A DNA stretch of 64,000 bases from an uncultured Candidatus Saccharibacteria bacterium (GCA_964612745.1 CAZTCH010000002.1:1009-65008), one strand, 5' to 3'; positions 3,954-21,662 are shown, counted from the stretch's first letter. Numbers and translations: made by a program. The notes: generated by a model not told the origin, from the letters alone.

Positions 3954-3963
3954 TCTATAACAT

Positions 3964-5753: not shown

Positions 5754-5840
5754 ATGGTTTTAAATAGAAGAATTAGAAGAAATAGTAGAAGTAGAAGAAT
5801 TAGCCTCCCATACGGGAAAATAAGTAATTTTCAATTTTTG

Positions 5841-5886: not shown

Positions 5887-5899
5887 TTCTTACTAACGC

Positions 5900-6340: not shown

Positions 6341-6375
6341 ATGTATATAGCAACGCTAAACCAAACTAATTTAAA

Positions 6376-6801
6376 TTACAAAGACAAGAAAAATGCGGTC
6401 AACATGAGCGCTACCAATTGGTAGGAAAGCATAACAAATATCTGCTTTGCCCAAAACTTCTTCTTGGTGTTTGCCCACATAACAGCAGAAATTTGTGTTG
6501 GTGCAAAGAAGCCCAACCAAAGCCAGCCAGCAACGCCGTAGGCATGAAAGCTAGGTTCGCCAGCACGCATGTAATGGATAACCATTGCCAAAACAAATGT
6601 AGACACAATGGTTAAGACTAACTGCAAGCCGTAGAACGGTGCCATTTCTTTTTGCATCTGCTCTAATTCTGCTTTGGTGGCGTTTGTCTTTTCCATTATT
6701 TGCATCCACCATTTCCCAAACATGAGCGGCGAATACCATAACGCACCAAGCACAAATTGCACGAGCACTGCCACTGCAAACCACATCGCATTTATTTCCA
6801 T
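6376..6801 (-). CDS. DUF1761 membrane protein
   Basis: WYSPLMFGKWWM motif; 4 TM segments. Confidence 0.5.
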   Translation of the reverse strand: MEINAMWFAVAVLVQFVLGALWYSPLMFGKWWMQIMEKTNATKAELEQMQKEMAPFYGLQLVLTIVSTFVLAMVIHYMRAGEPSFHAYGVAGWLWLGFFAPTQISAVMWANTKKKFWAKQIFVMLSYQLVALMLTAFFLSL

Positions 6802-6845
6802 ACAATACCTTTTTTAATTCCTACTTATACTATAGCAAACCAAAA

Positions 6846-7241
6846 CTACTCTTTGTCATTCCACGGAAAGCCCCACTGCCACTTTGGCTTTTCCCCTTTT
6901 TTGTAACAAATGCGTAAGAGCGTCACCGTAAGTAACACTGCCGGAAGCACGAACAGAAACATGACTTCGCGCCCCGAAGAGCGTTCATCTATCGTGAGCG
7001 CGCACAGCACCAGCGCCGCAACATATACCCCCACCGTAAGCCAACCCTGCCACGTCACAGGGGTCCACCCCCACCCAAACCCTTTGCGTTTGAACCACAA
7101 ATGGTTTGGATTGTTTCGGACATAGTCCATATACTGCCTAAATAGTTTCATATGTTTTACTGCCAAGTGTGTTGGCAAGATTATATATATAGTATATTCC
7201 CCCACGTACCGACCGTCTAGATGACTACGCCCATATCCCAA
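6846..7241 (-). CDS. Hypothetical membrane protein
   Basis: Hydrophobic segments; uncertain start. Confidence 0.3.
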   Translation of the reverse strand: MGYGRSHLDGRYVGEYTIYIILPTHLAVKHMKLFRQYMDYVRNNPNHLWFKRKGFGWGWTPVTWQGWLTVGVYVAALVLCALTIDERSSGREVMFLFVLPAVLLTVTLLRICYKKGEKPKWQWGFPWNDKE

Positions 7242-7660: not shown

Positions 7661-8098
7661 CTAAAAAGTTTGTGCTGTGCGGATAAATCCATACGACTGG
7701 GCACCAAAGGCATGCCCACGCATGATATCTCTTAAACCTCGGTATTCCTCCGGATAACCAAGGTTAAAAGAAAATCTATTCGCCCACCAATAGTAACGAA
7801 ACCCTTCCACTTCAAGAAACTCCTGCCATCTCTCGGGGACAAACTCCACCAGCTTACAGTTATACCCCCTGCCGGCTGATGTGAGACATACGCGCATCGG
7901 CCTCTTGTCTATTCTTACTACTTTTACCCAAGGAGCGGTTAGATGCATGCCCGCTCGCACGTCTACGCTCGTCTCGCCAGTCAGATAATTCCTCTGTATA
8001 GCAAGATGGTACGCTTCTGTGTAATGAAAGCAGAAAAGATAACAACAAACCGATAGAGTCAATATGCCGTCGGCGATAGCGACTTTACTGATAGTCAC
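7661..8098 (-). CDS. Membrane-anchored hypothetical protein, paralog A (GTG start overlapping the upstream stop as GTGA)
   Basis: Shares RPM.VC....NCKLVEF.P....EQFL motif with the 8095..8727 protein. Confidence 0.45.
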   Translation of the reverse strand: MTISKVAIADGILTLSVCCYLFCFHYTEAYHLAIQRNYLTGETSVDVRAGMHLTAPWVKVVRIDKRPMRVCLTSAGRGYNCKLVEFVPERWQEFLEVEGFRYYWWANRFSFNLGYPEEYRGLRDIMRGHAFGAQSYGFIRTAQTF

Positions 8099-8727
8099 TT
8101 TACCTCCGTTGTTGGCACAGCACTAGGAGTAGGGACCACTCCTACCCCACTAGCCTCGTCCGGTTTAAGCTCGCGTTTAATCGTGAGGAACGGATAGGAC
8201 TTTCCGCTGCCGTCATACGCATAGCTTTTCAGAATGTCCGGCAGCCGGCTTTCGTCGCCGCTATAATCGTCGCGACCATGCCATGCCAGAAATTGCTCAA
8301 GACCAGCAGGGTTAAACTCGACAAGCTTGCAGTTAAGCACGCGAGAGTTTGCGTTATTGCAAACCTGCATCGGACGCAAATCAATCTTGTGTACTTTGAC
8401 CAGAAAGGGTGGTGTAATAACATACCCCGTCCTGCCAATGCGTTCAATTTTGCCCGACCTAGCATCGTATTTGTACGCCAACTCATAGTTGTCAACAAAA
8501 TCAACGCAAAGAGCGTAAAACGCGCCAACGCCGATAAGCAAGGTAACAAACAGAACCGCAACAAGTATCAGAGCCTTAACCCAAAGGCTAAACTCTGTGA
8601 ACCAGCTTGTTATGTGTTCAGCGACTTCCTCAACGGATCCTTGTTCCATGACTTCCTCCTGGATTGATTGTAAAAGTGGTAAACTACGTATTTTTTGCAA
8701 CAACGCCTGTTGCAAACTCGAAACCAA
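8095..8727 (-). CDS. Membrane-anchored hypothetical protein, paralog B (possible SPFH-like fold)
   Basis: TM helix then a conserved block shared with paralog A. Confidence 0.45.
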   Translation of the reverse strand: MVSSLQQALLQKIRSLPLLQSIQEEVMEQGSVEEVAEHITSWFTEFSLWVKALILVAVLFVTLLIGVGAFYALCVDFVDNYELAYKYDARSGKIERIGRTGYVITPPFLVKVHKIDLRPMQVCNNANSRVLNCKLVEFNPAGLEQFLAWHGRDDYSGDESRLPDILKSYAYDGSGKSYPFLTIKRELKPDEASGVGVVPTPSAVPTTEVK

Positions 8728-8878: not shown

Positions 8879-8920
8879 AAAAGCCAACACTTTTCACGGC
8901 CGTGAAAAGTGTTGGCTTTT
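8879..8920. repeat. Hairpin family copy H1 aaaagccAACACTTttcacggccgtgaaAAGTGTTggctttt
   Basis: Perfect 16-bp stem, conserved loop TTCACGGCCGTGAA; immediately 5' of R1. Confidence 0.7.
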
Positions 8921-8926
8921 AAATTA

Positions 8927-8948
8927 TTACGAAGGTGACCATGGTAAC
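8927..8948. repeat. Array repeat R1 ttacgaaggtgaccatggtaac
   Basis: One of 11 copies of the 22-26 bp conserved repeat. Confidence 0.8.
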
Positions 8949-9014
8949 TACAATATCGCTACAAGACAACCCCTAAGGCTCACCGTATGAAGATTTTGAC
9001 CACGTACAAAGCAA

Positions 9015-9521
9015 TTACGCCTGCGCTGGTTTATTCAATTCTTGTTCAGCTTTTTCTGCAAGGTCTAAAAAGTCCCCCACGTCTGCCACACTCATTTCTC
9101 GGGGAACGTAATCTTTTATACAAAAGACCCCTACAGGCATATTACTCGCGCGGTCATACAAAGATTTACCTGCGTAAAATCGTATATGCGGCTCCCCTAC
9201 CACCATTGGATTGTCTGCAAAACACGGGTCGGCCAGTGTGTCGTTAATAATTAAAATAACTTGCGACAACAACGCATGTCCACAAAAAGAAATATCCCGC
9301 GGTCCCCCAGTGGACTGCAGCCCCTGCACGGACTTAAACCACTCTCGGGCTTTATCCACAAGTGCAATAGTAGAGATTGGCACACCGAATCTTTTGACTG
9401 CTTCTCTCGTAAGACAGTCGAACCTTTCTTCTGCTGCAGTGTCTAACAAATGTAAACCCTGCACTGCACAAACGCGCTCTACATCGTTCTCTGGAATTGG
9501 TGCTTTTTGCATATGTAACAA
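9015..9521 (-). CDS. GAF domain protein
   Basis: GAF-like pattern (DTAAEERF...FCGHALL). Confidence 0.55.
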   Translation of the reverse strand: MLHMQKAPIPENDVERVCAVQGLHLLDTAAEERFDCLTREAVKRFGVPISTIALVDKAREWFKSVQGLQSTGGPRDISFCGHALLSQVILIINDTLADPCFADNPMVVGEPHIRFYAGKSLYDRASNMPVGVFCIKDYVPREMSVADVGDFLDLAEKAEQELNKPAQA

Positions 9522-9685
9522 AAATGAATGAATTATATAAACATAAAAAAGTACCGCACAATCGTACGTGTACTTTTAAACCATTTTATATGTATAAATA
9601 AAAATGCCCATAGAAATTCTAGGCCTGCTTCACCAGGTCAGAGCTTCTACGAGCTTCGTTACTTACAGTATAGCAAATAAAAATG

Positions 9686-10192
9686 CTACACCACAATTTC
9701 TATCCCCACAAAAAACATAATTGCACCTTTTGTATCTAAAATTGGTGACACCAAAAGTTCTACGTCGTACAGCTCTCCACTTTTCTTTTTGTTCGTGATA
9801 TGTAATTTCACAGATGTCTTTTTTTCAGTCATCTGCTTCCACATGTCTTTGTAAAATGCTTCTGGCATATGACCGCCCCACAACTCAGAAGGGCGCTTCC
9901 CCACCGCCTCATGCATTTGGTAGCCAGTAACTTTTTCTACCGCAGCGTTTATAAATAAAATTACTCCGTGTGCGTTGGTAATAATTACTTGCTCAATAGT
10001 ACTTTCTAATATCCGGTTCAAAGTACCACACCGCACGCACTTAATCTCCGGCCCAGTAGTGCCTTGGTCTTTCGCCAACATCTTACCGCACTTCATGCAC
10101 CGAAATTCTTTCGAATCGTGCATGAGCACCTGCGGCAAAAAACTTGCACTGCTCGTAGCATCTACATTTGTATTGATATTTTTTTCTGTCAC
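9686..10192 (-). CDS. PAS domain protein with N-terminal zinc ribbon
   Basis: CMKCG....CVRCG followed by PAS-like core. Confidence 0.5.
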   Translation of the reverse strand: MTEKNINTNVDATSSASFLPQVLMHDSKEFRCMKCGKMLAKDQGTTGPEIKCVRCGTLNRILESTIEQVIITNAHGVILFINAAVEKVTGYQMHEAVGKRPSELWGGHMPEAFYKDMWKQMTEKKTSVKLHITNKKKSGELYDVELLVSPILDTKGAIMFFVGIEIVV

Positions 10193-10524
10193 ACAGTTGT
10201 GTTAAAGGCTGCCCTCTTACCGCTTGCGCACACTTTGCATTGTCGTGCTTTCTTTGCTTGCAAATTTTACCTTTGTTCTACTGGTAGTATAGTGCTACTT
10301 TTTTTGCATTACAAGCCCGTACACAAATATAGACGCACTCCACAGAGGGCAAATAAACCTTTCGCTCAAAAGTCAACACTTTTCGTTACTACGCGCGCCT
10401 GGTAACGAAAACAGTACAAAGATACATTTGCATTGGTTATTAAACCTGCAAACTGAGCATCTTCACTTCTCTTTAATGTGAAATTGTCATACTTCCTTCG
10501 CTATTAACAGTACACTATACACAT

Positions 10525-10986
10525 ATGCCACACTCATTTGCCGTGCTGCGCAAAGACCATCGCGCGGTCGAAGAGCTGTTCAAACAACTAGAAGACACAA
10601 CTGAACGAGCGGAAAAAGGTCGGACTGAACTGTTCGCGGAACTGAAAGAACTTTTGGACCAGCACACCGAAATAGAAGAAACCATTCTCTACCCTGCACT
10701 AGAGAAAGTAGAGCTCACCCACGACGCCACTTTAGAGGCAGAAGAAGAGCACAACGTGGCAAAAACATTATTAGCAGAACTGGAAGCAAGCGACCCCACC
10801 ACGGAGCACTGGACCGCCAAGCTAACCGTGCTCAGAGAAAGTATTGAGCACCATGTAGAAGAAGAGGAGAATGAATTGTTCCCACAAGCAGAGAAAGCAC
10901 TAGACCAAGACACGCTTGCTGAGCTGGAAGAGCAGCTCAATAAGGAGAAAGAAAACTCGGATAGCATTTTAGAAGAAATCTTGTAG
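10525..10986 (+). CDS. Hemerythrin-like metal-binding domain protein
   Basis: H..E...H....E spacing typical of hemerythrin HHE; only + strand gene in the array. Confidence 0.55.
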   Translation: MPHSFAVLRKDHRAVEELFKQLEDTTERAEKGRTELFAELKELLDQHTEIEETILYPALEKVELTHDATLEAEEEHNVAKTLLAELEASDPTTEHWTAKLTVLRESIEHHVEEEENELFPQAEKALDQDTLAELEEQLNKEKENSDSILEEIL

Positions 10987-10998
10987 ATAGACGAAAAA

Positions 10999-11035
10999 AC
11001 ACCCTGACATTCCCTGAATGCTAGGGTGTTTTGTA
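10999..11035 (+). terminator. Terminator hairpin caccctgacattccctgaatgctagggtg then a T-run
   Basis: Direct reading. Confidence 0.5.
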
Positions 11036-11065
11036 TTCTGGATGAATCCTAGCTTTATTTCTAGC

Positions 11066-11689
11066 CTACACACCTAGCAATATTCGCAGGTTTTCAAAAT
11101 GATGCAGAAACGAGTACAGAGCAAAATACGCATAGGCAAACCCAGGAAGCATGAACAGCAGGGCAACCAGCACTAGTCCGCCGGACCTGTTTACACTTGG
11201 CTTGTTAACAGGGTGGAAAGCTGCAATAAGCAACGCAGACCCCAAAAAGTGAGCGTATGCAGCAACGGAACCAAAAAATCCAATCAAAATAAAAGCTTGA
11301 TACCATTCGGGTAGACCCCCAACCGCATACACCAAAATAGCCAAAGCCAAATCCAGAACAAAAAAATACGCTAACTCTTTTATCAGTTTTTCTGCTGAGT
11401 TTCGATACTCCACATCTACTGCAGCCATTTTTGTGGTATCAAATGTTACCTTGTGTCTTTTTGCAACAATTCTATGTATGATCTCGTACTCAAATGCGCT
11501 CAGACCAAAAAGTAAAATAGTTGTTAGAAAAACGTTTGGCAAAATACTGTTGAGGTACGGTGTAATAGTCGCAAAGAAAAACAAACCTGTGCAATAGGCC
11601 AACACCCTCACAGACACAACCAAGTACCCACTCAAAACCGCCACGGCTTTACTCTTTTCAAAATCCGAACTCACAATCTCCTGCTCCAT
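11066..11689 (-). CDS. Hypothetical polytopic membrane protein
   Basis: Multiple hydrophobic helices. Confidence 0.4.
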   Translation of the reverse strand: MEQEIVSSDFEKSKAVAVLSGYLVVSVRVLAYCTGLFFFATITPYLNSILPNVFLTTILLFGLSAFEYEIIHRIVAKRHKVTFDTTKMAAVDVEYRNSAEKLIKELAYFFVLDLALAILVYAVGGLPEWYQAFILIGFFGSVAAYAHFLGSALLIAAFHPVNKPSVNRSGGLVLVALLFMLPGFAYAYFALYSFLHHFENLRILLGV

Positions 11690-11743
11690 AAATAAAATAT
11701 CTTAAAACTTCTGCTGACTATTTAAGTATACCCCCATAGCTAC

Positions 11744-11765
11744 TTACGAAGATGGCCATGGTAAC
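11744..11765. repeat. Array repeat R2 ttacgaagatggccatggtaac (2 mismatches), 3 bp after the NUDIX stop
   Basis: Sequence match. Confidence 0.7.
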
Positions 11766-11770
11766 ATCTG

Positions 11771-12268
11771 TTATCTAAAATCGTTTGGATTAAAATAATC
11801 TTTAAGACCATTTGTTTGCTCGCAAAGTTCAATAGAGTTAAGCTCCTCTTTTGAAAAAAATCCGACTTCTTCACACTCGTCTGTAGGGGTAAACTCCAAA
11901 CTTTCTATCTCAATCTGATAAGCCAATACGAGGGAGTAATACCAATCCATGCTCCTACTATTTTCAAATCGCCATGTCCAAGCATACACTGGTTTTTCAG
12001 AAATCTTTTTTATCTGCATACCCGTCTCCTCCTCAATCTCACGCTTAAGTCCATTTTTTATATCTTCGCCAAAATCTAACCCTCCTCCTGGAAGCTCCCA
12101 CTCCCCACCTAGCTTTTGAGATTCTTTGAGTAATAGAATTTTACCTTCTTTAACAAAAATACCTTTTACAGAAACTCTGTAAAAGCTGTCGGGGAAATCT
12201 TTAGATTTATGAAGTGATGTCATATGTTTAATACTCGTATTATTAGCAATAATAGCACACAAACGCAA
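11771..12268 (-). CDS. NUDIX hydrolase
   Basis: Nudix box GGGLDFGEDIKNGLKREIEEETGM. Confidence 0.7.
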   Translation of the reverse strand: MRLCAIIANNTSIKHMTSLHKSKDFPDSFYRVSVKGIFVKEGKILLLKESQKLGGEWELPGGGLDFGEDIKNGLKREIEEETGMQIKKISEKPVYAWTWRFENSRSMDWYYSLVLAYQIEIESLEFTPTDECEEVGFFSKEELNSIELCEQTNGLKDYFNPNDFR

Positions 12269-12462
12269 TTTAGAATTTTGTGGTAATACCTACGTCGCCC
12301 TTCAACGAACCACTGTATAGCTTAGTGATCGTCGTCATGACGGCAGCCCTCTTTGGCTGTACTCATACTCAACCCAGCCTGGTCAGAATATCAATTTGGA
12401 TACTTAAAATTCTTTATCCATCTCTACAATTTTTAGCTCATCAGCAGAGAATAATCTTTTCG

Positions 12463-12484
12463 TTACGAAGGTGACCATGGTTGC
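12463..12484. repeat. Array repeat R3 ttacgaaggtgaccatggttgc (3' end degenerate)
   Basis: Sequence match. Confidence 0.65.
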
Positions 12485-12588
12485 GGTGACAAAAAGTTTC
12501 TTAGTTTTTTGTCGCAATAAAAAATGCCCGAAGTCTTTTTAAGAACTCCGGGCCAACATCGTGTTCGGGTATTATCTGGATAGCAATT

Positions 12589-13182
12589 CTATAACTCTAT
12601 TGCTTTCCAAAAACCACCTTCAATTGGAAGCTTGCCAGTCCTACACCAGCTGGTAAGCACATCACTATAGTACGCCTCCCAAGCCTGCATTTGAACTTGC
12701 GCCCACATATCTGAATCCTCCACAAGCGAGTTGGGGCAACCTGCTTTATTGTGAACATTTAGATACAAATACCTACTAGTACGAGAGCGAATATACCAGT
12801 AGATACATTTTTGGGGCTGGCTTGGCAAGGAACATCCTTTAAGGGTGTAAGCCTTAGTTTTGCCACAGTCGATGATTCCTCGTAGATTCGCAACCCCTTT
12901 CCGAACCAAAGCTTGATAGCCGTGTACAATGTCTAAGTCGTTCTGAGAGAGACCACGCGACAGCTCCGGCGATTGTCCATAAAAAGGGAGAAACATTGCA
13001 AAATTCAGGATGCCGGATTTTTGCCCGGATCGAACAATGTCACAGAGTTCCCCGCTCATGTACGGCACGGAAGTGCAAGTGGCACCCACAAAGACTGGCT
13101 TTCCTAGCGTTAGGAGCCTAGTAAGAGTAAGCACCATGCCATCGGGGGAAACCACTTTCTCTTTACGAAATTTCATATCCAC
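12589..13182 (-). CDS. Hypothetical protein (cassette cargo)
   Basis: 197-aa ORF between R3 and R4. Confidence 0.35.
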   Translation of the reverse strand: MDMKFRKEKVVSPDGMVLTLTRLLTLGKPVFVGATCTSVPYMSGELCDIVRSGQKSGILNFAMFLPFYGQSPELSRGLSQNDLDIVHGYQALVRKGVANLRGIIDCGKTKAYTLKGCSLPSQPQKCIYWYIRSRTSRYLYLNVHNKAGCPNSLVEDSDMWAQVQMQAWEAYYSDVLTSWCRTGKLPIEGGFWKAIEL

Positions 13183-13380
13183 CTCCTCGAAGTTTGAATT
13201 CTAATATTAAATCATATTTTCTAACTTTAGTCAAGTCTTTGACGCTCAATACGACTTCTAATACACTCGGATTACAAAAAATACGATCTGCAATCCTATT
13301 TTTGCAAAAATCGAAATATGATCCGGGAATTTTTAGGGTGCCATAAAGAAAATACGCACGTAACCGATTTAGTGCCTCGC

Positions 13381-13402
13381 TTACGAAGATGACCATGGTA
13401 AC
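13381..13402. repeat. Array repeat R4 ttacgaagatgaccatggtaac
   Basis: Sequence match; the 93-aa ORF 13163..13444 reads through it and is probably spurious. Confidence 0.75.
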
Positions 13403-13453
13403 GGGTTCCATACTTACTAAGGCGGGCACATGACAGAAAAACACCTAACACTA

Positions 13454-13493
13454 AAAGCCAACACTTTTCACGGCCGGGAAAAGTATTGGCTTG
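13454..13493. repeat. Hairpin family copy H2 (imperfect) aaaagccaacacttttcacggccgggaaaagtattggctt
   Basis: Same loop and stem ends as H1. Confidence 0.6.
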
Positions 13494-13550
13494 AAAGTTG
13501 GGTTAGTTGCAAGCAAATCCTCCCCCACTCCCACAAATTTACCAAATTTA

Positions 13551-13592
13551 AAAAGCCACTAGTTTTCACGGCCGTGAAAACTAGTGGCTTTT
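13551..13592. repeat. Hairpin family copy H3 aaaagccACTAGTTttcacggccgtgaaAACTAGTggctttt
   Basis: Stem differs from H1 by compensatory changes on both arms. Confidence 0.7.
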
Positions 13593-13616
13593 GGCGCTAG
13601 GCACGCATGGTAGAGA

Positions 13617-14006
13617 CTAGGACATTTTTGTGCACAGTTCAACCAAAAAGCCGTTTATGTCCGCAACATAGGCAATTGTTTGCCCCCACGGTTTTTGCTC
13701 TGGCTCTTTCACAACCTTTGCACCTGCTTGAGTTGCTTTGCTAAATGCAGCCGCAAGGTCTTCTACCACAAATGCAATTTCTGCTGGAGGTGGTAACATG
13801 CCTGCATCACTCTTTGCAATCGCCACGCCGTTGTACTCCGCTATGCTGTATGATGCAAACGCAAGCGTGGTGCCACCAGTTTCTAACTCGGCATAGTCTT
13901 TTTCTGGAGTAATAAATTTTTGGGCAAACCCAAACGCGTCAACATAAAAAGCAATCGTCTTTTCGACATCTGCTACGTAAAGAATTGTGTATCCGTATGT
14001 AATCAT
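13617..14006 (-). CDS. VOC/glyoxalase-bleomycin resistance family protein
   Basis: Two beta-alpha-beta-beta-beta modules. Confidence 0.6.
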   Translation of the reverse strand: MITYGYTILYVADVEKTIAFYVDAFGFAQKFITPEKDYAELETGGTTLAFASYSIAEYNGVAIAKSDAGMLPPPAEIAFVVEDLAAAFSKATQAGAKVVKEPEQKPWGQTIAYVADINGFLVELCTKMS

Positions 14007-14046
14007 ATTGGTATTTTACCACAACGCACACAGCTCTACATCTTGG

Positions 14047-14068
14047 TTACGAAGGTGATCATTGTAAC
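14047..14068. repeat. Array repeat R5 ttacgaaggtgatcattgtaac (preceded by TTGG)
   Basis: Sequence match; about 5 bp after the AlkD-like stop. Confidence 0.7.
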
Positions 14069-14073
14069 CATGT

Positions 14074-14844
14074 CTAGCGCTGGGCGTGTTTAAGAATCCA
14101 CGTAGTATGCTCGTTTTTGGAACGCGACCAGCGCGCGACAACTTTTTGCGCTTCTTTGGGATTCACTTTCAGCCAGTCGCGCAAATGATTTGCCACAGAC
14201 TTTTTTACGAACTTCACACTGTCTTCTTTGAGTAATTCGAGTATTTCCAAAACTGGTTTCGGGTTTTCGCTCCACACGTCCAGCTTGGGTGCCCAAGGTA
14301 GTTTTGGACGCAAGCCTTCGCTGGCAAGCCGCCGCAAATGAAAATTTTTACTCTTTGCCCACCGCGCACACACCGCAAGCGTTTGCACTGGGTAGGCACG
14401 AGCAAAAGGACGGATAGCGTACTCCCCCGTGTTCCGCTTAGTTATTTCTTCTAGAACTTGCATGGAAACCCGAAAGTGCGCCACACCGTATTTTTCTACA
14501 AACTTACCCACGGGCATGAGCCAGTAGTAGTTAGTGAACATGCCGGTCTCGTGTGGATTTTCCGGACCTAAAATCTGCATGAGCACTGCCAGTGCTGCAG
14601 GATATGACTCTGGCAAATACCGCTGCAAGTTGTCTGCAATAATTTCTACCCGCGCTGTATATGTTTTGCCTACCACTTCTTTTTTCACACTCGCACAAAA
14701 CGCTTTTTTCTGAAACTCGGGATACACCACAACCAACTTGTCTGCCAACAATAGTGCCAGACTCTCCCCAAACGCATCGGTAATAGAATATTTCCCCGTT
14801 TCCGGATTTTTAAAACTATGCTTCTGCACCTCTTGTTTCGCCAT
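14074..14844 (-). CDS. DNA alkylation repair enzyme (AlkD/AlkC-like HEAT-repeat glycosylase family)
   Basis: HEAT-like repeat composition (C-terminal VKFVKKSVANHLRDWLK). Confidence 0.5.
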   Translation of the reverse strand: MAKQEVQKHSFKNPETGKYSITDAFGESLALLLADKLVVVYPEFQKKAFCASVKKEVVGKTYTARVEIIADNLQRYLPESYPAALAVLMQILGPENPHETGMFTNYYWLMPVGKFVEKYGVAHFRVSMQVLEEITKRNTGEYAIRPFARAYPVQTLAVCARWAKSKNFHLRRLASEGLRPKLPWAPKLDVWSENPKPVLEILELLKEDSVKFVKKSVANHLRDWLKVNPKEAQKVVARWSRSKNEHTTWILKHAQR

Positions 14845-14930
14845 ACTACTCCCCTGCTTTACTTACTTCTACTGTACCACACCCTTCAACCCTAATGAAG
14901 GCGGGCTTATATCAGAAAAGCACACAAATC

Positions 14931-14970
14931 AAAAGCCAACACTTTTCACGGCCGTGAAAAGTGTTGGCTT
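14931..14970. repeat. Hairpin family copy H4 aaaagccaacacttttcacggccgtgaaaagtgttggctt, followed by a degenerate R-like gaagaaggtgaaaggtaagcc
   Basis: Identical to the H1 core. Confidence 0.7.
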
Positions 14971-15026
14971 GAAGAAGGTGAAAGGTAAGCCAAAAACGAG
15001 CATTCGCACTCCAAAATTACCTGCAT

Positions 15027-15070
15027 GAAAAAGCCATCAGTATTCACGGCCGTGAATACTGATGGCTTTT
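15027..15070. repeat. Hairpin family copy H5 aaaaagccATCAGTAttcacggccgtgaaTACTGATggctttt
   Basis: Third distinct covarying stem variant. Confidence 0.7.
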
Positions 15071-15556
15071 AGTTTTATGATTGGGATGGGTGTAGATAGA
15101 GCGTGCACGGTAACGGGCTAGGCGCGCAATCCAGGGTTTTTTGCTGCGAGTTGGAGTACTTTTTTTTAGTCCCACAAGATTCACGTCTTCCAGCTTTTTA
15201 AACCGTATGCAGCTTTTACCCACACTAACCTTGCCTAGTTCTGTTGCATGCTTTTCGGCAATGTACTGACCTGCCTCCAAAGCACACACATACACGCTTA
15301 CGTACTGCTTCTGGTTGGCCAGCGCAACAACGGGCCACTGCACTGTCTCTTTTTTGTGATTCAAGTATGGGAAACTACCATACCCCAGCATGTTAGACGC
15401 CATGTGAGGCTTTAGTTTTGGCACAGCCTTTTGGATAAATTCGTGCAAAAACAAAATAAGCTCTTTCCGCTCTGCCGGAACCGCCGCAAGATACTCTTTA
15501 ACCGATTTCGCTTCTACGGGTTTAAACATGTTCATATGTACTGGGTTAGCCAACAA
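15044..15556 (-). CDS. DUF1801 (YdhG-like) domain protein
   Basis: N-terminal composition; C-terminus overlaps hairpin H5. Confidence 0.4.
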   Translation of the reverse strand: MLANPVHMNMFKPVEAKSVKEYLAAVPAERKELILFLHEFIQKAVPKLKPHMASNMLGYGSFPYLNHKKETVQWPVVALANQKQYVSVYVCALEAGQYIAEKHATELGKVSVGKSCIRFKKLEDVNLVGLKKSTPTRSKKPWIARLARYRARSIYTHPNHKTKSHQYSRP

Positions 15557-15616
15557 TGCGTACAGTATATCCTAAAAATTACGTTCGAAGTATTGCCAGC
15601 ATGCCCCTACCTTTGG

Positions 15617-15638
15617 TTACGAAGGTGACCATGGTAAC
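15617..15638. repeat. Array repeat R6 ttacgaaggtgaccatggtaac (perfect, preceded by TTGG)
   Basis: Sequence match. Confidence 0.8.
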
Positions 15639-15643
15639 AGATT

Positions 15644-16204
15644 CTAGCTTTGCAGGTGGGACACGTCGTTCCAAAACATAATGCGCCACTTCCCTTTTTC
15701 TTCGTTAAACATACATTTTGAAATGCCACAATTATCCATGACGAGAGATTCATCAAAACTTTGGAGCAAGCTTTCAGTCAGCCCATCACCCAACATACAG
15801 TACGCAACCAAAGCTTTAAAAAATGCAGCATGACCTACAAGAACATTGTGTTTTGTTGAAAGACTTTCCAGAAAGGTCTTTGTCTCTATCAAGCGTGCAT
15901 GCAACTCCGAGTAACCTTCTGCGTAGCCATAGGCGCCATCGGTAAACTTACCGCGACGCTCCTTTAGACATACTTTTACTTGGGACCGCACACCAGTTAC
16001 TTTTTCTATCTCCGCCGCGGTCTGAGCCGCTCTGGTAATTCCTGAATGGTAGATTGAATCAATAGCAGCATGCCCAAAACGCTTCGCAACCAAAGTTGCC
16101 TCTGAAGCACCTTTTTCAGTCAGCGGATCTTCCGCCCCTGCAAAATTAGTATCTACATTCGACATGCATTCACCATGCCGAATGAAATAATAGTATTTTC
16201 TCAT
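15644..16204 (-). CDS. Histidine phosphatase (phosphoglycerate-mutase-like) family protein
   Basis: IRHGE catalytic RHG motif. Confidence 0.6.
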   Translation of the reverse strand: MRKYYYFIRHGECMSNVDTNFAGAEDPLTEKGASEATLVAKRFGHAAIDSIYHSGITRAAQTAAEIEKVTGVRSQVKVCLKERRGKFTDGAYGYAEGYSELHARLIETKTFLESLSTKHNVLVGHAAFFKALVAYCMLGDGLTESLLQSFDESLVMDNCGISKCMFNEEKGKWRIMFWNDVSHLQS

Positions 16205-16225
16205 TTCTTGCCTTGTTCTTATTGG

Positions 16226-16247
16226 TTACGAAGGTGACCATGGTAAC
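16226..16247. repeat. Array repeat R7 ttacgaaggtgaccatggtaac (perfect)
   Basis: Sequence match. Confidence 0.8.
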
Positions 16248-16251
16248 AATA

Positions 16252-17049
16252 TTATAGACTAACCAACTTATGCTTTACTTTGCTGCCCAACCACTTTTGA
16301 CTTAGCTTTTCATAATGCTCTGTTAAGTCAGTCACCCTCAGATCAATTTTCTTGCGTCTACTTAGTACCTTTTCAATCTCCGGATGTTTTTGCAAGTATG
16401 ATTTTAATTTAGCGGGCACAATGTCATCTTGGGATATTATCTGTATGCCCTTGCCAACAACGCTGCGAATCCCTCTCTTCAATATCGGATAATGAGTACA
16501 ACCTAATACTATCGCCTCAACTTTTTGCTTTAAAAGCGGTTTCAGATATTCACGAAGGATTGGCCCTGCCCACTGCAACCCATCGTTCTCGATAAGTGGA
16601 ACTAGTAAGGGCGCTGCTTGCTGATACACCTTCACATTCGGCTTTATTTTTTTAAATTCTTCCACAATAGCATTCGAGCTAACTGTGGCTTGCGTTGCCA
16701 ATACGCCAATACGACTACTACCTATCTGAACAGCTGTTTCAACCGTGGGAACAATTACACCTAACACCCTTCTATCCGGATAATACTTTGGTAAATATTC
16801 ACGTTGTATCCTACGTAATGCTCTTGTTGAAGCAGTGTTACAAGCCAAGATAATTAACTTGCAATCATTCTGAAACAAATACTCAACAGCTTCCAATGTA
16901 AACTGATATATTGTTTCTTGTGACCGACCACCATAAGGTACTCGCTTAGTGTCTCCTAAGTAAAGATAATCATACTGAGGTAGCTGCTTCGAAATACTTT
17001 TTAGTAAAAGCAAACCGCCTACACCACTGTCAAATATGCCTATTTTCAT
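16252..17049 (-). CDS. murI: Glutamate racemase
   Basis: IFDSGVGGL motif; the ORF-track N-terminus MVTFVTKNK is translation of repeat R8, so the true start is at MKIGIFDSG. Confidence 0.7.
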   Translation of the reverse strand: MKIGIFDSGVGGLLLLKSISKQLPQYDYLYLGDTKRVPYGGRSQETIYQFTLEAVEYLFQNDCKLIILACNTASTRALRRIQREYLPKYYPDRRVLGVIVPTVETAVQIGSSRIGVLATQATVSSNAIVEEFKKIKPNVKVYQQAAPLLVPLIENDGLQWAGPILREYLKPLLKQKVEAIVLGCTHYPILKRGIRSVVGKGIQIISQDDIVPAKLKSYLQKHPEIEKVLSRRKKIDLRVTDLTEHYEKLSQKWLGSKVKHKLVSL

Positions 17050-17074
17050 TCCGGTATCATACCATAAAATTAAC

Positions 17075-17506
17075 TTATTTTTGGTTACGAAGGTGACCAT
17101 GATAACGGGGGTTGAACTGTTGTGGAAAGCGCTTGGTTGATATGCCTAACTTGTTCAAAATCAGCCCCGATACCTTAAAACAAAGAGGATACAGCAACAC
17201 GACAATTGCGATGTTCACATATTCATTCGCAAAAAGCTCTGGCCCTGCTAAAAGAGCCAGCAGCGCTAAGCATCCGAAATACAAAGTATGATATAGCAAT
17301 CTACCAAGCATACCCCAACGCCCCACCCGGGCTTCGAAAAATGCCACAGTATACAGCAGCAGTGTGAAGACCAAAATATACACCCAATACTGACTGACGA
17401 GCCGCACAACAATCCCCCACACTATTCTGTACCCCTCACGCAATCCAGTGTCCATTAAAGATGGTAAAGCCTGAGCCACCTGCGCTACTTCATTTGTTTG
17501 TTGCAT
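17075..17506 (-). CDS. Hypothetical membrane protein (C-terminus reads through R8)
   Basis: Hydrophobic helices. Confidence 0.35.
   Translation of the reverse strand: MQQTNEVAQVAQALPSLMDTGLREGYRIVWGIVVRLVSQYWVYILVFTLLLYTVAFFEARVGRWGMLGRLLYHTLYFGCLALLALLAGPELFANEYVNIAIVVLLYPLCFKVSGLILNKLGISTKRFPQQFNPRYHGHLRNQK
17085..17106. repeat. Array repeat R8 ttacgaaggtgaccatgataac
   Basis: Sequence match. Confidence 0.75.
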
Positions 17507-17517
17507 ATCCTATTTGG

Positions 17518-17539
17518 TTACGAAGGTCACCATGGTAAT
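17518..17539. repeat. Array repeat R9 ttacgaaggtcaccatggtaat
   Basis: Sequence match. Confidence 0.7.
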
Positions 17540-17563
17540 CAAAACTCAGAATGAAGCACTTAG

Positions 17564-18145
17564 CTAACCACTAGAAACAGCCTCGCCACTAACAATCTTT
17601 TCTAAAACCTTACGCGCTTTCTCTGAATGCCCCAAAGCAAGCTTACGAATTACTCCTAAATTTTCCGGATTGTTCATAGGAAGCGTACTTGTTGCAGAAA
17701 ATAAAAAATTTAAACTTGCTACCACCTCAGCAAGAGTTTTAACTATGTCCTCATTCTGAGTACTTAATGCCAATGGCGTACTTAAACCATTTAAAGCCTG
17801 TGAAATGTTTGAAATATGCTGGTTAAATCGGTGCGACGTGTCTTTGGTCACCCACCCCGGAGAGTATTCTTCCATTGTACTATATATTAACTTTGCATCA
17901 AGGTTACTCCCATCGTGCAAACTAATTTGCCCAAGATAGTCTTGCATGGCAACATTAATTAACGTCAAAAGACTAACGGCAAGATCGTGCACTTTTTCGT
18001 TCCTTAAGGTTTCAATATCAATCTTCTTTTGCTTCCTATATAACCAAACACCGGAGTATGCAATTATTAAACCAGCAAATAAAGTTCCCACAAATGTATT
18101 ATCTGCAGTCTGTGCTAGAGCATTAGAAAATGTATTTATATCCAT
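17564..18145 (-). CDS. Hypothetical protein with N-terminal TM helix
   Basis: ORF only. Confidence 0.35.
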   Translation of the reverse strand: MDINTFSNALAQTADNTFVGTLFAGLIIAYSGVWLYRKQKKIDIETLRNEKVHDLAVSLLTLINVAMQDYLGQISLHDGSNLDAKLIYSTMEEYSPGWVTKDTSHRFNQHISNISQALNGLSTPLALSTQNEDIVKTLAEVVASLNFLFSATSTLPMNNPENLGVIRKLALGHSEKARKVLEKIVSGEAVSSG

Positions 18146-18190
18146 AAGCGACTAATATACAATCAAGTAACAGTACCACTCACGTGCATC

Positions 18191-19126
18191 CTACCTTTGG
18201 TTATGAATGTCACCATGGTAACGGACATGGGAGCTTATATTTTTGGGGAGGAGTTTCTGTGCTAGTAATTCAAAAGTAATGCCTGCGGCCTTGGCAGCTT
18301 TGGGTAGTAAGCTTTCCGAAGTGAGTCCTACGCCACAAGGGGTGTTTATCTCCAAAATATAGAGCACACCATCTTGCAATATAAAATCAGCCCGAGAATA
18401 ACTACCCAGCTGTAAATCTTTGTGAATTTTAAGAGAAATAGCCTGCGCTTTCTTTTGAACCCCCACATCTACAGAAGGAGCGAATGGAATTTCTTTAGCC
18501 ATGCCTGAATACTTGCTTTTGTAATCAAACCACTTTCCATTTGGCGGTACAATCTCAACCACGGGGAGTGCTTTTCCATTTAACACTCCAACTGTTATTT
18601 CAACACCAATAAGCTGCTTCTCCGCATACACACGACAGGGAAGTTGGAGGATTTTCTTCACCAAAAAGCCAGAGAGGTCTTTTAGCTTGTGTAATATTAC
18701 TACTTCATGAGACGAACCCCCATAAGTAGCCTTAAGAACGCAGGGAAAACCAAACTTAATTATATCTTGCTTTGTTTTAACAATTTTCCATGGAGCAGTT
18801 ACAATACTATTTCTATCACAATATTGCTTAAAAAGAATCTTATCAAAAGCAATCTTTGCTCCTTTGGGCTCTGAACCAACATAAGGTATTTTAGAAGACT
18901 TTAGGAATCTGTAGAGAGTACCATCCTCCCCTTCTCTGCCGTGCATTACCGGGAAGGCTACATCACACACTTTTATGGCAGAACGTAACTCAGAATAACC
19001 TCGTTTAAAGTCAAACACCTGCACTGCGTGGCCATTTGATATCAATGCCTTTTTAACCATACTTGCTGAAAGCAAGGAAATTTTTCGCTCTGATGAAGAT
19101 CCGCCAGTAATAATCAAAATATTCAT
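18191..19126 (-). CDS. ddl: D-alanine--D-alanine ligase-like ATP-grasp enzyme
   Basis: N-terminal MNILIITGGSSSERKISLLSA and ATP-grasp-like C-terminal half. Confidence 0.6.
   Translation of the reverse strand: MNILIITGGSSSERKISLLSASMVKKALISNGHAVQVFDFKRGYSELRSAIKVCDVAFPVMHGREGEDGTLYRFLKSSKIPYVGSEPKGAKIAFDKILFKQYCDRNSIVTAPWKIVKTKQDIIKFGFPCVLKATYGGSSHEVVILHKLKDLSGFLVKKILQLPCRVYAEKQLIGVEITVGVLNGKALPVVEIVPPNGKWFDYKSKYSGMAKEIPFAPSVDVGVQKKAQAISLKIHKDLQLGSYSRADFILQDGVLYILEINTPCGVGLTSESLLPKAAKAAGITFELLAQKLLPKNISSHVRYHGDIHNQR
18201..18222. repeat. Array repeat R10 ttatgaatgtcaccatggtaac
   Basis: Sequence match. Confidence 0.65.
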
Positions 19127-19202
19127 ACAGTAACCATACCAAAAAATCGCCAGCCAAGCGATTCTATACAAAAAAACTACCAAATCTCAGTAATTTGATT
19201 GG

Positions 19203-19224
19203 TTACGAAGGTGACCATCGTAAC
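19203..19224. repeat. Array repeat R11 ttacgaaggtgaccatcgtaac, 30 bp from the tRNA-Gln 3' end
   Basis: Sequence match. Confidence 0.75.
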
Positions 19225-19254: not shown

Positions 19255-19328
19255 TGGCTGGGGTACTAGGATTCGAACCTAGGATGACGGGACCAGAACC
19301 CGTTGCCTTACCGCTTGGCTATACCCCA
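19255..19328 (-). tRNA. tRNA-Gln (anticodon CUG), CCA encoded
   Basis: Minus-strand cloverleaf: UGGGGUA acceptor with U1-A72, GGUUCGAAUCC T-arm, UUCUGGU anticodon loop, G73-CCA. Close to the canonical bacterial tRNA-Gln. Confidence 0.85.
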
Positions 19329-19354: not shown

Positions 19355-19511
19355 TGCCTTATCCCGACTCCGAGTCGGGACCATACCCACTGCACAAAAA
19401 CATGTGCGGGAACCCCAGCCAAAAAAATACGAATGTCTATATTTTGTTATGAAAGAAGTGCTGCATGTCCGTTGCCTTATCCCGACTCGGAGTCGGGACT
19501 GTACCCCATCC
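19355..19511. repeat. Two copies of G(T)TGCCTTATCCCGACTC(C/G)GAGTCGGGAC..TACCC hairpin repeat adjacent to the tRNA
   Basis: Units at 19355-19390 and 19471-19511, each with perfect hairpin cccgactc.gagtcggg. Confidence 0.55.
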
Positions 19512-19617: not shown

Positions 19618-20067
19618 ATGCAAAACGAACCTCAGACAGCCCAAAACTACCAAAACCACAGAAAATTTGTAGTTGCCTTCCACGCGGTGGTGTCCACCCT
19701 GCTTGTACTTGGCCTTATTTTCTCCATTGTCGCTCTTGTAAAAGCTTTTGGAGACGCAGGTATTCCTTGGACAGAACTTGCCCTTGTCGCCCTTGCGTTG
19801 GGTAGCAGCATTCTTATGTGGTACGCTCGTGCCTTCCCTGTTGGCGTACAAGACCGCGTCATTCGCCTAGAAGAGTCGTTACGCGCCCAAACACTAACCG
19901 GCAAACCACTCGACCCTGCTCTGACCATGTCGCAAGTAATTGCACTGCGCTTTGCATCTGACGAAGAATACGCAGCTCTTGTTACCCGCGCAGTTGCAGA
20001 AAAGCTAACCAACGACCAAATAAAGCAAGCTGTTAAGAACTGGCGCGCCGACAACGCCCGTATTTAA
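19618..20067 (+). CDS. Hypothetical membrane protein
   Basis: Two TM helices. Confidence 0.4.
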   Translation: MQNEPQTAQNYQNHRKFVVAFHAVVSTLLVLGLIFSIVALVKAFGDAGIPWTELALVALALGSSILMWYARAFPVGVQDRVIRLEESLRAQTLTGKPLDPALTMSQVIALRFASDEEYAALVTRAVAEKLTNDQIKQAVKNWRADNARI

Positions 20068-20100
20068 ATTTGCCGAACACTTTTTTGTCATACTAAACCT

Positions 20101-20535
20101 ATGCCACAAGAAATTATAGATTACCTTGCCACACAACGAGTAGGAGTACTTGCAGTAGAAATGCCGGACGGGTCACCACACGGAGCAACTCTGCATTTTG
20201 CTACTAACACAGAAGCAAATGAGTTCTATTTTCGCACCTCCCCTGCTTACAAAAAAATGGAATCGCTTGCAGAGCGCACAACTACACGCGCATCGTTTGT
20301 TGTTGGCACCACAGAAGCAGAAATGAAAACCTTTCAGCTTGATGGCGTGCTTAGAAAAATTACAGCAGAAGAACAAGCAGCATTTGAGGCAGCTTATCTC
20401 GGCAAGCTCACCGAAAAAAAGGGTAAATCTTCGGACGGTGTGGGATTAGTTTTTACCCCCACATGGTGGCGCTTTACCGACTGGACCAAACCAGAAGGAA
20501 AATTCGTTCTGAGTTCGGAGACCACGAGCAATTAG
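20101..20535 (+). CDS. Pyridoxamine 5'-phosphate oxidase-like FMN-binding protein
   Basis: PNPOx-like split-barrel composition. Confidence 0.5.
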   Translation: MPQEIIDYLATQRVGVLAVEMPDGSPHGATLHFATNTEANEFYFRTSPAYKKMESLAERTTTRASFVVGTTEAEMKTFQLDGVLRKITAEEQAAFEAAYLGKLTEKKGKSSDGVGLVFTPTWWRFTDWTKPEGKFVLSSETTSN

Positions 20536-20584
20536 ATTCTTTAAGCACCTCTTCGCAACTCAATATTATACTAACCATACCCAT

Positions 20585-21172
20585 ATGAGCACTGAACGTG
20601 GCTGGCAAAACTACTACGAACAAACTAAAGACAATCCACCAAGTGTGCTATTAGCAGAAGCTCTTTCTCTTTGCCCACAAAAATCATCGGCTTTAGATTT
20701 GGGGGCTGGCGCATTGAAGGATTCAAAATATTTACTCAGCCAAGGGTTTGAACACGTCACAGCCGTAGACAGCTCACAGGCACCGGAACAACTAATCGAA
20801 GGACTGTCAAAAGATAAATTCGAATACGTCATCGTCCCTTTTGACGAGTTCTCGTTTCCAGAAAATGAGTACGACTTAGTCAGCGCACAATTTTCCCTCC
20901 CGTTTAACCCACCAGCAAGTTTCGATGCAGTATTTGCAAGCATTAAAAACTCACTCAAACAAGGTGGCGTTTTTACAGGACAACTATTTGGAGAAGAAGA
21001 TGAGTGGAACACGCCCGAAACTAAACTTACTTTCCACAGCAAAAACAGAGTAGAACAGCTGCTTTCTGGTATGGATATTAGCAAGCTCGAAGAAACAATC
21101 AGAGACGGTACACTCGCGAACGGACAAGCAAAGCATTGGCATTTGTTTAACATTATTGCGCGAAAAAAATAG
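20585..21172 (+). CDS. Class I SAM-dependent methyltransferase
   Basis: LDLGAGALKD motif I. Confidence 0.55.
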   Translation: MSTERGWQNYYEQTKDNPPSVLLAEALSLCPQKSSALDLGAGALKDSKYLLSQGFEHVTAVDSSQAPEQLIEGLSKDKFEYVIVPFDEFSFPENEYDLVSAQFSLPFNPPASFDAVFASIKNSLKQGGVFTGQLFGEEDEWNTPETKLTFHSKNRVEQLLSGMDISKLEETIRDGTLANGQAKHWHLFNIIARKK

Positions 21173-21662
21173 ATTGGTCACCACAGCCACAAACACACTT
21201 GTTGTGAAGACTACCAGAAATGGCAAAGGTATTTTTACTGCGCGCAAGTTTAGTGCGGGGCAAACACTGTACGAAGTCACTGGCAAACGGTTTCACTACA
21301 CTACGTTACTTACCCACGGTGGCACGTTTCTGGACAACTGCTTCCGGCTTTCTGAAAACTACTACCAAAGCCCAGAAGGACAGATTGGTGTGTACCAAAA
21401 CCATTCGTGCACACCGAACGCACGTGTGGTCAAACAACACGGCAAACTGTTGGTGGTAGCAGTGGAAGATATTGAGAAAAACACAGAGGTACTTATTGAC
21501 TACTCCACCATTACGGCAAGTGACGACATTTGGACCATGCGCTGTAACTGCGGAGCAAAAGGTTGCAGAAAAGTGGTACGGAACTGGACCAAGCTTCCCC
21601 GCGCGACAAAAGAGTACTACATAAAATCACAAATTTTGCCTCGCTACATTCAGAAGTTGTAA
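21156..21662 (+). CDS. SET domain protein (putative lysine methyltransferase)
   Basis: NHSCTPNA ... Y plus Cys-rich post-SET CNCGAKGC. Confidence 0.55.
   Translation: MREKNRLVTTATNTLVVKTTRNGKGIFTARKFSAGQTLYEVTGKRFHYTTLLTHGGTFLDNCFRLSENYYQSPEGQIGVYQNHSCTPNARVVKQHGKLLVVAVEDIEKNTEVLIDYSTITASDDIWTMRCNCGAKGCRKVVRNWTKLPRATKEYYIKSQILPRYIQKL

Follow-up and report, generated by a model that had tools for sequence, protein, structure and literature searches.

Saccharibacteria, members of the Candidate Phyla Radiation (CPR), have tiny genomes with few recognisable mobile elements, and their acquisition of accessory genes is poorly understood. Several described bacterial systems associate genes with short repeats or conserved anchors. 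In integrons and clusters of attC sites lacking integron-integrases (CALIN), a single conserved repeat separates co-oriented, tightly packed and mostly promoterless single-gene accessory units, relatives differ in gene content, and some open reading frames (ORFs) end inside the repeat. In Xer modules (pdif of Acinetobacter; integrative mobile elements exploiting Xer, IMEX, at dif), imperfect palindromes of 26-28 bp bound the accessory genes and can serve as sites for an unlinked tyrosine recombinase encoded by the host. Repetitive extragenic palindromes (REP), with their composites, bacterial interspersed mosaic elements (BIME) and REP doublets (REPIN), are short imperfect palindromes found just past stop codons and between operon genes, either single or paired as inverted doublets, which form long hairpins; they come in lineage-specific variants and are accompanied by REP-associated tyrosine transposases (RAYT). 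In Neisseria, dRS3 repeats and Neisseria intergenic mosaic elements (NIME) are short inverted-repeat elements that punctuate intergenic arrays and mark hotspots, and single genes between conserved anchors (minimal mobile elements) are swapped by transformation and recombination in a naturally competent organism. Lastly, the tRNA-linked flexible islands of Prochlorococcus and the hypervariable regions of SAR11 combine a conserved tRNA and distal anchors with near-total differences in cargo. In the current study, we characterized a repeat, R, whose array recalls each of these systems in the respects just named. It lies in a hypervariable island adjoining a tRNA-Gln gene, within a 64,000-nt stretch of DNA (hereafter the window) from an uncultured Candidatus Saccharibacteria bacterium (GCA_964612745.1 CAZTCH010000002.1:1009-65008). 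The array works like a cassette array and fails the tests for an integron or CALIN, a REP-RAYT system, a Xer/dif system and an uptake sequence. With a probability that we put at roughly 40%, R would be a lineage-restricted, self-copying REP/REPIN-like repeat that doubles as the joint at which the island's modules are exchanged and recombined.

R is a near-palindromic repeat with a conserved core of 23 bp followed by a weaker CAA. On the gene (minus) strand it reads GTTACCATGGTCACCTTCGTAAC, and the corresponding plus-strand 26-mer is TTGGTTACGAAGGTGACCATGGTAAC. Pattern searches with the 26-mer (up to three mismatches) recovered 10 copies and those with a 20-nt core (up to three mismatches) all 11, with a chance expectation of 0.00-0.01 in shuffled sequence; every copy was a plus-strand hit in one and the same orientation, between 8923 and 19224. 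An earlier note, made from the sequence alone, had reported 11 co-oriented copies in 10.3 kb, and the count stands; the positions that it listed belong to the same copies, shifted by 2-4 nt. A profile hidden Markov model (HMM) built from 25 copies (threshold E < 0.01) found no additional copy in the whole 64 kb, so that R is absent from the 54 kb outside the island. Within the island (8.7-19.3 kb) R stands at 11 of 15 junctions, compared with 0 of 44 spacers between genes in the rest of the window (6.3 kb), and a conservative count of 9 of 15 still gives a Fisher p of 4e-7. Copies are always intergenic or at ORF ends, and their number equals that of the units plus one. Information content drops to about zero directly outside the 23-26 bp at both edges, and mean pairwise identity of the core is 87%. 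R can be parsed as an imperfect palindrome, GTTAC-CATG-GTCAC-CTTC-GTAAC (GTTAC-N4-GTCAC-N4-GTAAC), or alternatively as three GTNACC units at 9-bp spacing; its asymmetry (CATG left, CTTC right) is conserved, and the array copies are co-oriented relative to the genes. The arms covary across lineages (GTTAC/GTAAC, GTTGC/GCAAC, ATACA/TGTAT), and because both change together the symmetry matters.

The array starts at tRNA-Gln(CTG) (19255-19328, minus strand), the anchor at its head, and all copies of R lie on the minus strand. R1 (19199-19224; minus-strand sequence GTTACGATGGTCACCTTCGTAACCAA) is 30 nt 3′ of the tRNA and 72 nt 5′ of a second anchor, the D-Ala-D-Ala ligase gene ddl (18191-19126, minus strand; Pfam). 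R2 (18197-18222) falls within the 3′ end of ddl, whose ORF runs on through it, and R3 (17514-17539) lies between the genes for a 193-aa and a 143-aa protein. R4 (17081-17106), 31 nt before murI, overlaps the end of the 143-aa ORF, which likewise runs through the repeat and stops past it (17075-17110). R5 (16222-16247), 4 nt past the murI stop and 17 nt before the histidine phosphatase start, and R6 (15613-15638), 5 nt past the phosphatase stop, are consensus copies. DUF1801, a double-hairpin module (module 2) and an AlkD-like gene follow, then R7 (14043-14068), 5 nt past the AlkD-like stop, a VOC gene and double-hairpin module 1, which R8 follows (13377-13402). R9 (12459-12484) comes after a 195-aa gene and its terminator, and R10 (11740-11765), the most diverged copy with a GGCCATC centre, sits 5 nt past the NUDIX stop. 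A 207-aa gene and genes with hemerythrin, PAS and GAF domains lead to the terminal copy, R11 (8923-8948), which is fused to a hairpin, H, in an R+H composite at the array end. Terminator hairpins precede R8 and R9 (promoters and terminators, here and below, are consensus matches only).

The cargo modules (9015-18145) are on the minus strand, except for the hemerythrin gene, the only plus-strand gene of the array region. They encode the 193-aa protein, the 143-aa membrane protein, glutamate racemase (murI), His_Phos_1, DUF1801, AlkD-like and VOC proteins, the 195-aa protein, NUDIX, the 207-aa membrane protein, hemerythrin, PAS with a Zn ribbon, and GAF, named after Pfam where a name is given; Pfam bore out all ten assignments of the earlier note (GAF, PAS, hemerythrin, NUDIX, VOC, AlkD-like, DUF1801, His_Phos_1, glutamate racemase and Ddl). 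GC content is heterogeneous (0.37-0.48), and a protein search placed the 143-aa protein in only two clusters among 5.8 billion. Exactly one gene occupies eight of the ten R-to-R intervals, as had been noted before. Spacing is less regular than the earlier note had it: the distance from stop codon to R ranges from overlap (the ddl and 143-aa ORFs) to 66 nt rather than 0-25 bp, and is exactly 4-5 nt at four junctions, and that from R to the next start is 7-235 nt rather than 20-200 bp. R1 follows the tRNA-Gln gene and not, as that note had stated for each copy, the stop codon of a gene.

Scans for R covered 185,579 species-representative genomes and 241 million metagenome records. Among the genomes, R was found in one, an uncultured Candidatus Saccharibacteria metagenome-assembled genome (MAG), CAZZBG01 (hereafter the sister MAG), with six matching contigs; the metagenome records yielded one real hit, a third array (L009), in which a DUF1697 gene lies between two copies of R and has homologues, 77% identical, in other contexts elsewhere. 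The sister contig L007 shares synteny with the window to either side of the array: its positions 1-3529 correspond to 3239-7200 of the window at 80-94% identity, and 6893-7083 to the tRNA-Gln region at 96%. The two genomes diverge by ~13% overall. L007 carries at least five copies of R in the same orientation with a different set and order of modules. Reading from tRNA-Gln, these are a GIY-YIG ORF, a partial tRNA copy, a metallo-beta-lactamase (MBL) hydrolase, R, a homologue of the 143-aa protein (83% amino acid identity), half an R, a 20-codon remnant of murI, R, an H fragment, R, a 208-aa protein, R, His_Phos (84% amino acid identity), R, H, a decayed R and H. Absent from L007 are Ddl, the 193-aa gene, DUF1801, AlkD, VOC, NUDIX and the sensor-domain genes, and the MBL gene is absent from the window. 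The 208-aa protein is 57% identical to the 207-aa protein of the window, and this unit occupies a different array position in each genome. Unit-level gain and loss at the same locus in a relative, the key prediction of the earlier note, is therefore what L007 displays.

The units shared between the window and L007 also show where their homology starts. For the downstream gene it starts at a point within R: the right half, ACCTTCGTAACCAA, travels with the leaders of the 143-aa gene and murI, and the left half varies with the upstream neighbour. In the 143-aa unit, the right half and leader are identical and the first nucleotides of the left half differ (ATTAC vs. GTCGC). The murI remnant of L007 retains the right half of R only, with the central GGTC replaced by TAGATATTT. 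In the window, the GGCCATC centre variant precedes the 207-aa unit, whereas in L007 it comes downstream of the 208-aa unit. Half-sites such as these would be left by a crossover near the centre of R, and the pattern weakly suggests one. Copying of R is apparent as well. R5 and R6 are identical to each other over 26 of 26 nt and to the L007 copies at 3719 and 5203, in flanking DNA that is 80-94% identical. Identity over 26 nt across ~13% divergence, together with a private CAATGG subvariant shared by dispersed doublets in L003, L004 and L005 of the sister MAG, suggests that R is copied rather than conserved as an ordinary binding site.

In the mechanism that we tentatively favour, modules would be gained, lost and moved by recombination using R as a common joint, the agent being either an unlinked recombinase acting on R or short-homology, homology-facilitated recombination of R-flanked DNA from relatives. 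Each insertion would add one co-oriented R, and the array would thereby behave in a cassette-like manner without being an integron. By architecture and placement R is REP/REPIN-like, as an imperfect palindrome that is present singly and in inverted doublets, past stop codons and beside terminators and promoters, and the sister MAG encodes both a RAYT-like transposase and a Xer-like recombinase. A joint that arrives with each module is the most economical account of R at 11 of 15 junctions vs. 0 of 44 spacers, of one copy more than units and of uniform orientation. Saccharibacteria are naturally competent, so that relatives could plausibly exchange R-flanked DNA. That crossover takes place at R itself, through an enzyme acting on it, is what we infer from these patterns; R may be a recombination site or a REP-like punctuation element. 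If R is the crossover point, the island would represent a compact, integron-independent way of shuffling single genes and a ready landing pad for genetic tools.

Several observations weigh against R as the joint of exchange. Only three array-bearing genomes are available, with no close strain pair among them, and breakpoints at R are weak evidence because R stands in nearly every spacer. In L007, the truncation of murI and a duplicated stretch of R plus 15 nt of H are illegitimate events rather than clean R x R recombination. The 64-kb window contains no recombinase or transposase: Pfam gave no Phage_integrase hit in the window ORFs scanned, and tblastn with Xer and IntI C-termini was negative in the window, in agreement with the earlier note on tyrosine recombinases. 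The gene ddl is a further difficulty. Homologues 71-76% identical in amino acid sequence also lie beside tRNA-Gln in related genomes (the tRNA is directly upstream of ddl in L032 and nearby in L022, L030 and L031), a conserved ddl leader hairpin is present in the window too, and ddl lacks a flanking R in L022, L023, L030 and L031. Judged by this gene order, ddl is an ancestral gene syntenic with tRNA-Gln and not a captured cassette, and since R1 and R2 nevertheless flank it, R can appear around resident genes. The window copy has no native stop and gains a C-terminal extension of ~16 aa through R2 (18191-18240), as shown by homologues that cover only 94% of the query. Moreover, the island is equally variable in relatives with 0-3 diverged copies of R, and a single-gene indel beside it, across the tRNA (a 240-aa ORF between DUF6526 and PNPOx), has no flanking repeat. 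Single copies of R have a 5-bp stem only and no stable fold, unlike REP and REPIN, and copy number is low. Finally, REPIN-like palindromes of another type (AAAGGGTWACCCTTT, loop, AAAGGGTWACCCTTT; GGGTWACCC type) enclose the RAYT-like gene of the sister MAG. R also occurs at housekeeping genes of that MAG, which in part matches the distribution that the earlier note had held would speak against its cassette reading; in the window, R is confined to the island.

The conserved hotspot extends well beyond the two closest genomes. Between tRNA-Gln/ddl and an AHSA1-like gene (window ~5852-6341, L007 1631-2071, L024 6334-6759 and L032 20192-20596), cargo turns over almost completely between relatives; the anchors enclose 4.6-13 kb of largely unrelated cargo in these four loci. 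On this evidence of gene order the locus belongs to the tRNA-linked flexible genomic islands, here with repeat-bounded single-gene modules. The islands of Prochlorococcus and SAR11 differ from this locus in having no conserved 23-bp repeat between one gene and the next. Diverged R-like copies number one in L032 and three in L024, two of the latter being in the opposite orientation and part of a 60-nt direct repeat that flanks ddl. L022 carries two inverted pairs of an R variant, GTTGCAATGGTCATCTTTGCAAC, and no copy of R was found in L030 or L031. As in other tRNA-linked islands, partial tRNA copies and small mobile genes occur at the tRNA. The Neisseria systems differ from the island in that their sequence is unrelated, NIME units are non-coding whereas the island units are genes, and no associated phage or IS110-type integrase was seen at the island.

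Of the other explanations, the one that survives best, although we consider it rather unlikely, is that R is a selfish or structural REP-like element that accumulates in a permissive, non-essential island and has no role in gene flux, which would proceed by ordinary illegitimate and homologous recombination. The hypervariability of the island where R is scarce or absent, the repeat-free indel next door, the illegitimate deletions in L007 and the presence of R around ddl all fit such passive punctuation. So does the occurrence of R as singles and doublets at housekeeping loci and next to terminators in several genomes. In the sister MAG, R occurs at tgt/pnp (L002), an ABC-F gene (L003), an unannotated RNA-like region (L004), rplC/rpsJ (L005) and rpsL/rpsG/fusA (L006), mostly as back-to-back inverted pairs one base apart (L002 836-882, L003 391-437, L004 874-926, and probably a further pair at L005 7974 onward). 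The pairs in L003 and L004 are perfect 47-bp palindromes, and the inverted pairs fold at -38 to -43 kcal/mol; no inverted pair occurs in the window itself. A RAYT-like Y1 transposase gene is also present in the clade (sister MAG, L002 6980-7579; Pfam Y1_Tnp, 1.9e-10), with a score of 39 bits, below the cutoff of 80, for the NCBIfam REP-associated tyrosine transposase NF047646. It is the arrangement in the window that speaks against passive accumulation, since 11 of 15 junctions vs. 0 of 44 spacers and 11 co-oriented copies would be hard to reach by independent insertions. The absence of a stable hairpin in single copies, the different palindrome around the RAYT-like gene and the low copy number tell against it too, and R further departs from REP and REPIN in lacking a conserved GTAG-type 5′ tetranucleotide and in the confinement of the window copies to one island in one orientation. 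If R is REP-like punctuation only, then to judge by our literature searches, which turned up no such repeat described from Saccharibacteria or Patescibacteria, it would be the first family of this kind in the group.

It is unlikely that the array instead represents a dedicated, undescribed, non-integron cassette system, in which R would be a double-stranded core site of two ~8-bp inverted arms around a GGTCACC centre, on a platform linked to tRNA-Gln, and circular single-gene cassettes would be moved by a trans-encoded recombinase such as the sister's Xer-like or Y1/RAYT-like enzyme. All-direct orientation, one site more than units and tight packing (a stop codon 4-5 nt before R at four junctions) would be expected of such a system, and a 23-bp quasi-palindrome fits the size of a tyrosine-recombinase core site. 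A central crossover would account for the half-sites at junctions and for the central scar in L007. Variant positions 11 and 14 of the GGCCATC copies flank the centre, and these copies fall on opposite sides of the 207-/208-aa unit in the two genomes. The sister MAG does encode a Xer-like tyrosine recombinase, directly beside its RAYT-like gene (L002 5935-7640). However, the window has no recombinase, R forms inverted doublets at housekeeping loci and flanks the ancestral ddl, and in L024 and L032 R-like variants point either way relative to genes. Between the His_Phos stop and R, the window and L007 have non-homologous spacers (5 vs. 16 nt), and no evidence of circles or empty sites was found. 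If true, this reading would give the ultra-small Saccharibacteria a dedicated gene-capture device.

Distinctly less probable is a boundary element. In this reading a dimeric DNA-binding protein would bind R as its operator and, where transcription units end, would serve as regulator, roadblock terminator or insulator, co-regulating or insulating the island genes. As a double-stranded quasi-palindrome, R has a core of footprint size and shows no RNA fold; its two arms covary between lineages, and it usually lies between a stop codon and a terminator. In addition, each of three inverted pairs is accompanied by a sigma-70-like promoter whose -35 element begins 3-11 nt downstream of the pair (TTGACT-17-TATAAT, TTGCAA-17-TATACT and TTGACG-17-TATAGT), and the first promoter-like site of the array comes shortly after R1. 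Inside apparent operons, however, R is found 7-31 nt before start codons, which leaves no room for a promoter; promoter-like sites are not enriched in the array, and no consistent -10 or -35 lies within R. Identity over 26 of 26 nt between copies and across species is atypical of operators, and a conserved, co-oriented asymmetry is likewise at odds with one. No candidate regulator was identified: MraZ was considered as the R-binding protein and rejected, the mraZ promoter of the window having a different motif (AGTGG, five times).

A canonical integrase-less integron (CALIN) or an array of Xer/dif type (pdif, IMEX) is exceedingly improbable, as co-oriented small accessory genes split by a conserved repeat and a cassette-typical cargo are outweighed by the length of R, core boxes at chance level, no attC-like fold, no IntI, no resemblance to dif, no GC-skew switch and sites that are direct rather than alternating. 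An attC site spans ~55-141 bp, carries the inverse core sites R′′ (RYYYAAC) and R′ (GTTRRRY) and forms an imperfect hairpin with extrahelical bases. R has 23-26 bp with sharp edges, and complete R-bearing spacers of 25-128 nt are below or near the attC minimum. Core-site pairs (RYYYAAC..GTTRRRY) were found twice with 2.0 expected, neither at R. Single copies with their flanks gave weak, inconsistent folds (z-scores +1.1 to -3.6) with no common stable structure. Unlike integrons and CALIN, then, the island has no attC architecture (length, R′′/L′′/L′/R′ boxes, folded bottom strand with extrahelical bases) and no IntI (searched for in the window), attI or Pc, and R also occurs outside the array as inverted pairs and flanks the ancestral ddl. 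The integron-like recombination system of the earlier note was thus not borne out, as attC length, boxes, fold and IntI in the window all fail, although its remark that the repeat lacks a canonical attC match was correct. R does mark nearly every module boundary, and cassette-like array remains a fair description.

Other classes of site were rejected as well. The dif consensus has the arm pattern ..ATAA-N6-TTAT.., which inspection did not reveal in R; the arms of R are not dif-like, its sites are direct and not alternating, and there are many chromosomal sites near a tRNA rather than a location at a GC-skew switch, GC skew being negative throughout the window with no switch. Sequence and distribution disagree with a dif/Xer site, a DNA uptake sequence and a Ter site alike; an uptake sequence would occur about once per kb, evenly genome-wide, as opposed to 11 copies in 10 kb and 0 in 54 kb. 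Two scans of viral collections, made with a phage or plasmid att site in mind, returned chance coding hits only. Translation of R as a leader peptide (MVTFVT..) was dismissed, since the internal ATG gives way to ATT or ATC in several copies and frames are inconsistent. Mimicry of a Shine-Dalgarno (SD) or anti-SD sequence by R was spotted by eye and is unsupported.

The hairpin that closes the array is an element in its own right. H (8879-8920, no strand assigned) is a terminator-like palindrome, AAAAGCC..TTCACGGCCGTGAA..GGCTTTT, that forms a perfect 42-nt hairpin with A- and T-run flanks (AAAAGCC-NNNNN-TTTTCACGGCCGTGAAAA-NNNNN-GGCTTTT) and scores as a bidirectional intrinsic terminator; the intact R+H composite spans 8948-8879. 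Five copies of H occur in the window (8879-8920, 13455-13492, 13551-13592, 14933-14970 and 15029-15070) and two in L007 (3581-3619 and 3680-3722), and the family is confined to the island. Its base and apex are invariant, the mid-stem shows compensatory changes at four stem pairs, and 92.5% of cells are paired. Two copies of H combine in a double-hairpin module of ~190 nt, present twice in the window and once in L007 (3580-3724). Module 1 (13405-13592, minus strand) consists of H, a 56-nt spacer with a decayed R, a second H and a conserved tail (..ttttctg..gcccgcctt), and module 2 (14885-15070, minus strand) has the same layout, with a degenerate R at 14971-14990; the earlier note had recognised both this longer module and the degenerate copy near 14970-14990, and both are real. 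The ~190-nt module has no Rfam match and could be a stack of former array ends, a miniature inverted-repeat transposable element (MITE) or a small RNA. A structured RNA or known RNA family was rejected for R, as Rfam found only the tRNA, plus spurious miRNA-hairpin hits on H. An RNase P RNA suspected by eye downstream of the inverted pair in L004 was not confirmed by Rfam at the gathering threshold.

Additional small mobile genes were observed around tRNA-Gln. A small GIY-YIG ORF (~80-87 aa) lies beside it in L007 (6569-6879), L022 (6733-6996) and L032 (9393-9632). In L007, the ORF has the tRNA on one side and a second tRNA-like copy on the other; in place of a D-arm, this copy has a hairpin encoding the C-terminus of the ORF. 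The window retains only two remnants of this hairpin and C-terminus, at 19355-19388 and 19473-19506 (also 19412-19434). This arrangement suggests that the ORF and the tRNA copy form a mini mobile element targeting tRNA genes. L022 has another repeat-bounded single-gene insertion at the hotspot, just upstream of ddl, where a different 27-bp direct repeat, TCKAACTTYGTCCCACAGTCTCAGCCA (9144-9170 and 9930-9956), surrounds a single ART-PolyVal (toxin-like) gene. In L030 (7631-9333), a gene for a large serine recombinase (Resolvase, Recombinase, Zn_ribbon_recom) and an HTH_17 gene abut or overlap tRNA-Gln(TTG), adjoining ddl; by its domains and position, this locus is an integrative element that occupies the same tRNA family in a relative. 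In the window, the terminal R+H is followed by two adjacent paralogous ORFs (7661-8098 and 8095-8727; 145 and 210 aa, 34% identical) that are absent from L007 and have no Pfam or NCBIfam match.

Across the tRNA from the island, the window carries DUF6526, PNPOx, methyltransferase and SET genes (19618-21662). It is here that the 240-aa ORF between DUF6526 and PNPOx is variably present, distinguishing L015 from L016, two contigs of one MAG. The closest homologues of DUF6526 outside the clade are Bacteroidota-named proteins with ~50% identity, which suggests a lateral origin of this gene.

The remainder of the window consists of housekeeping genes, including the division and cell wall (dcw) genes mraZ, mraW and a penicillin-binding protein (PBP) gene, mreB, recJ, dinB, genes of glycolysis and the pentose-phosphate pathway, and dnaX. 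AT-rich low-complexity repeats (for example aaaactgcaactaaaaactgtaaactga and aattccaaatcccaagcaccaaata) lie at 22140-22440, 25900-26030, 36720-36860, 38030-38240, 47890-48190 and 55280-55530, often as inverted flanks around a GC-rich hairpin (..gatgggcatc..), and copies are also found in the sister MAG. The five AGTGG motifs upstream of mraZ are direct repeats at 10-12-bp spacing (29839-29885), the classical MraZ-box arrangement heading a dcw cluster, and the true mraZ start is probably near 29754.

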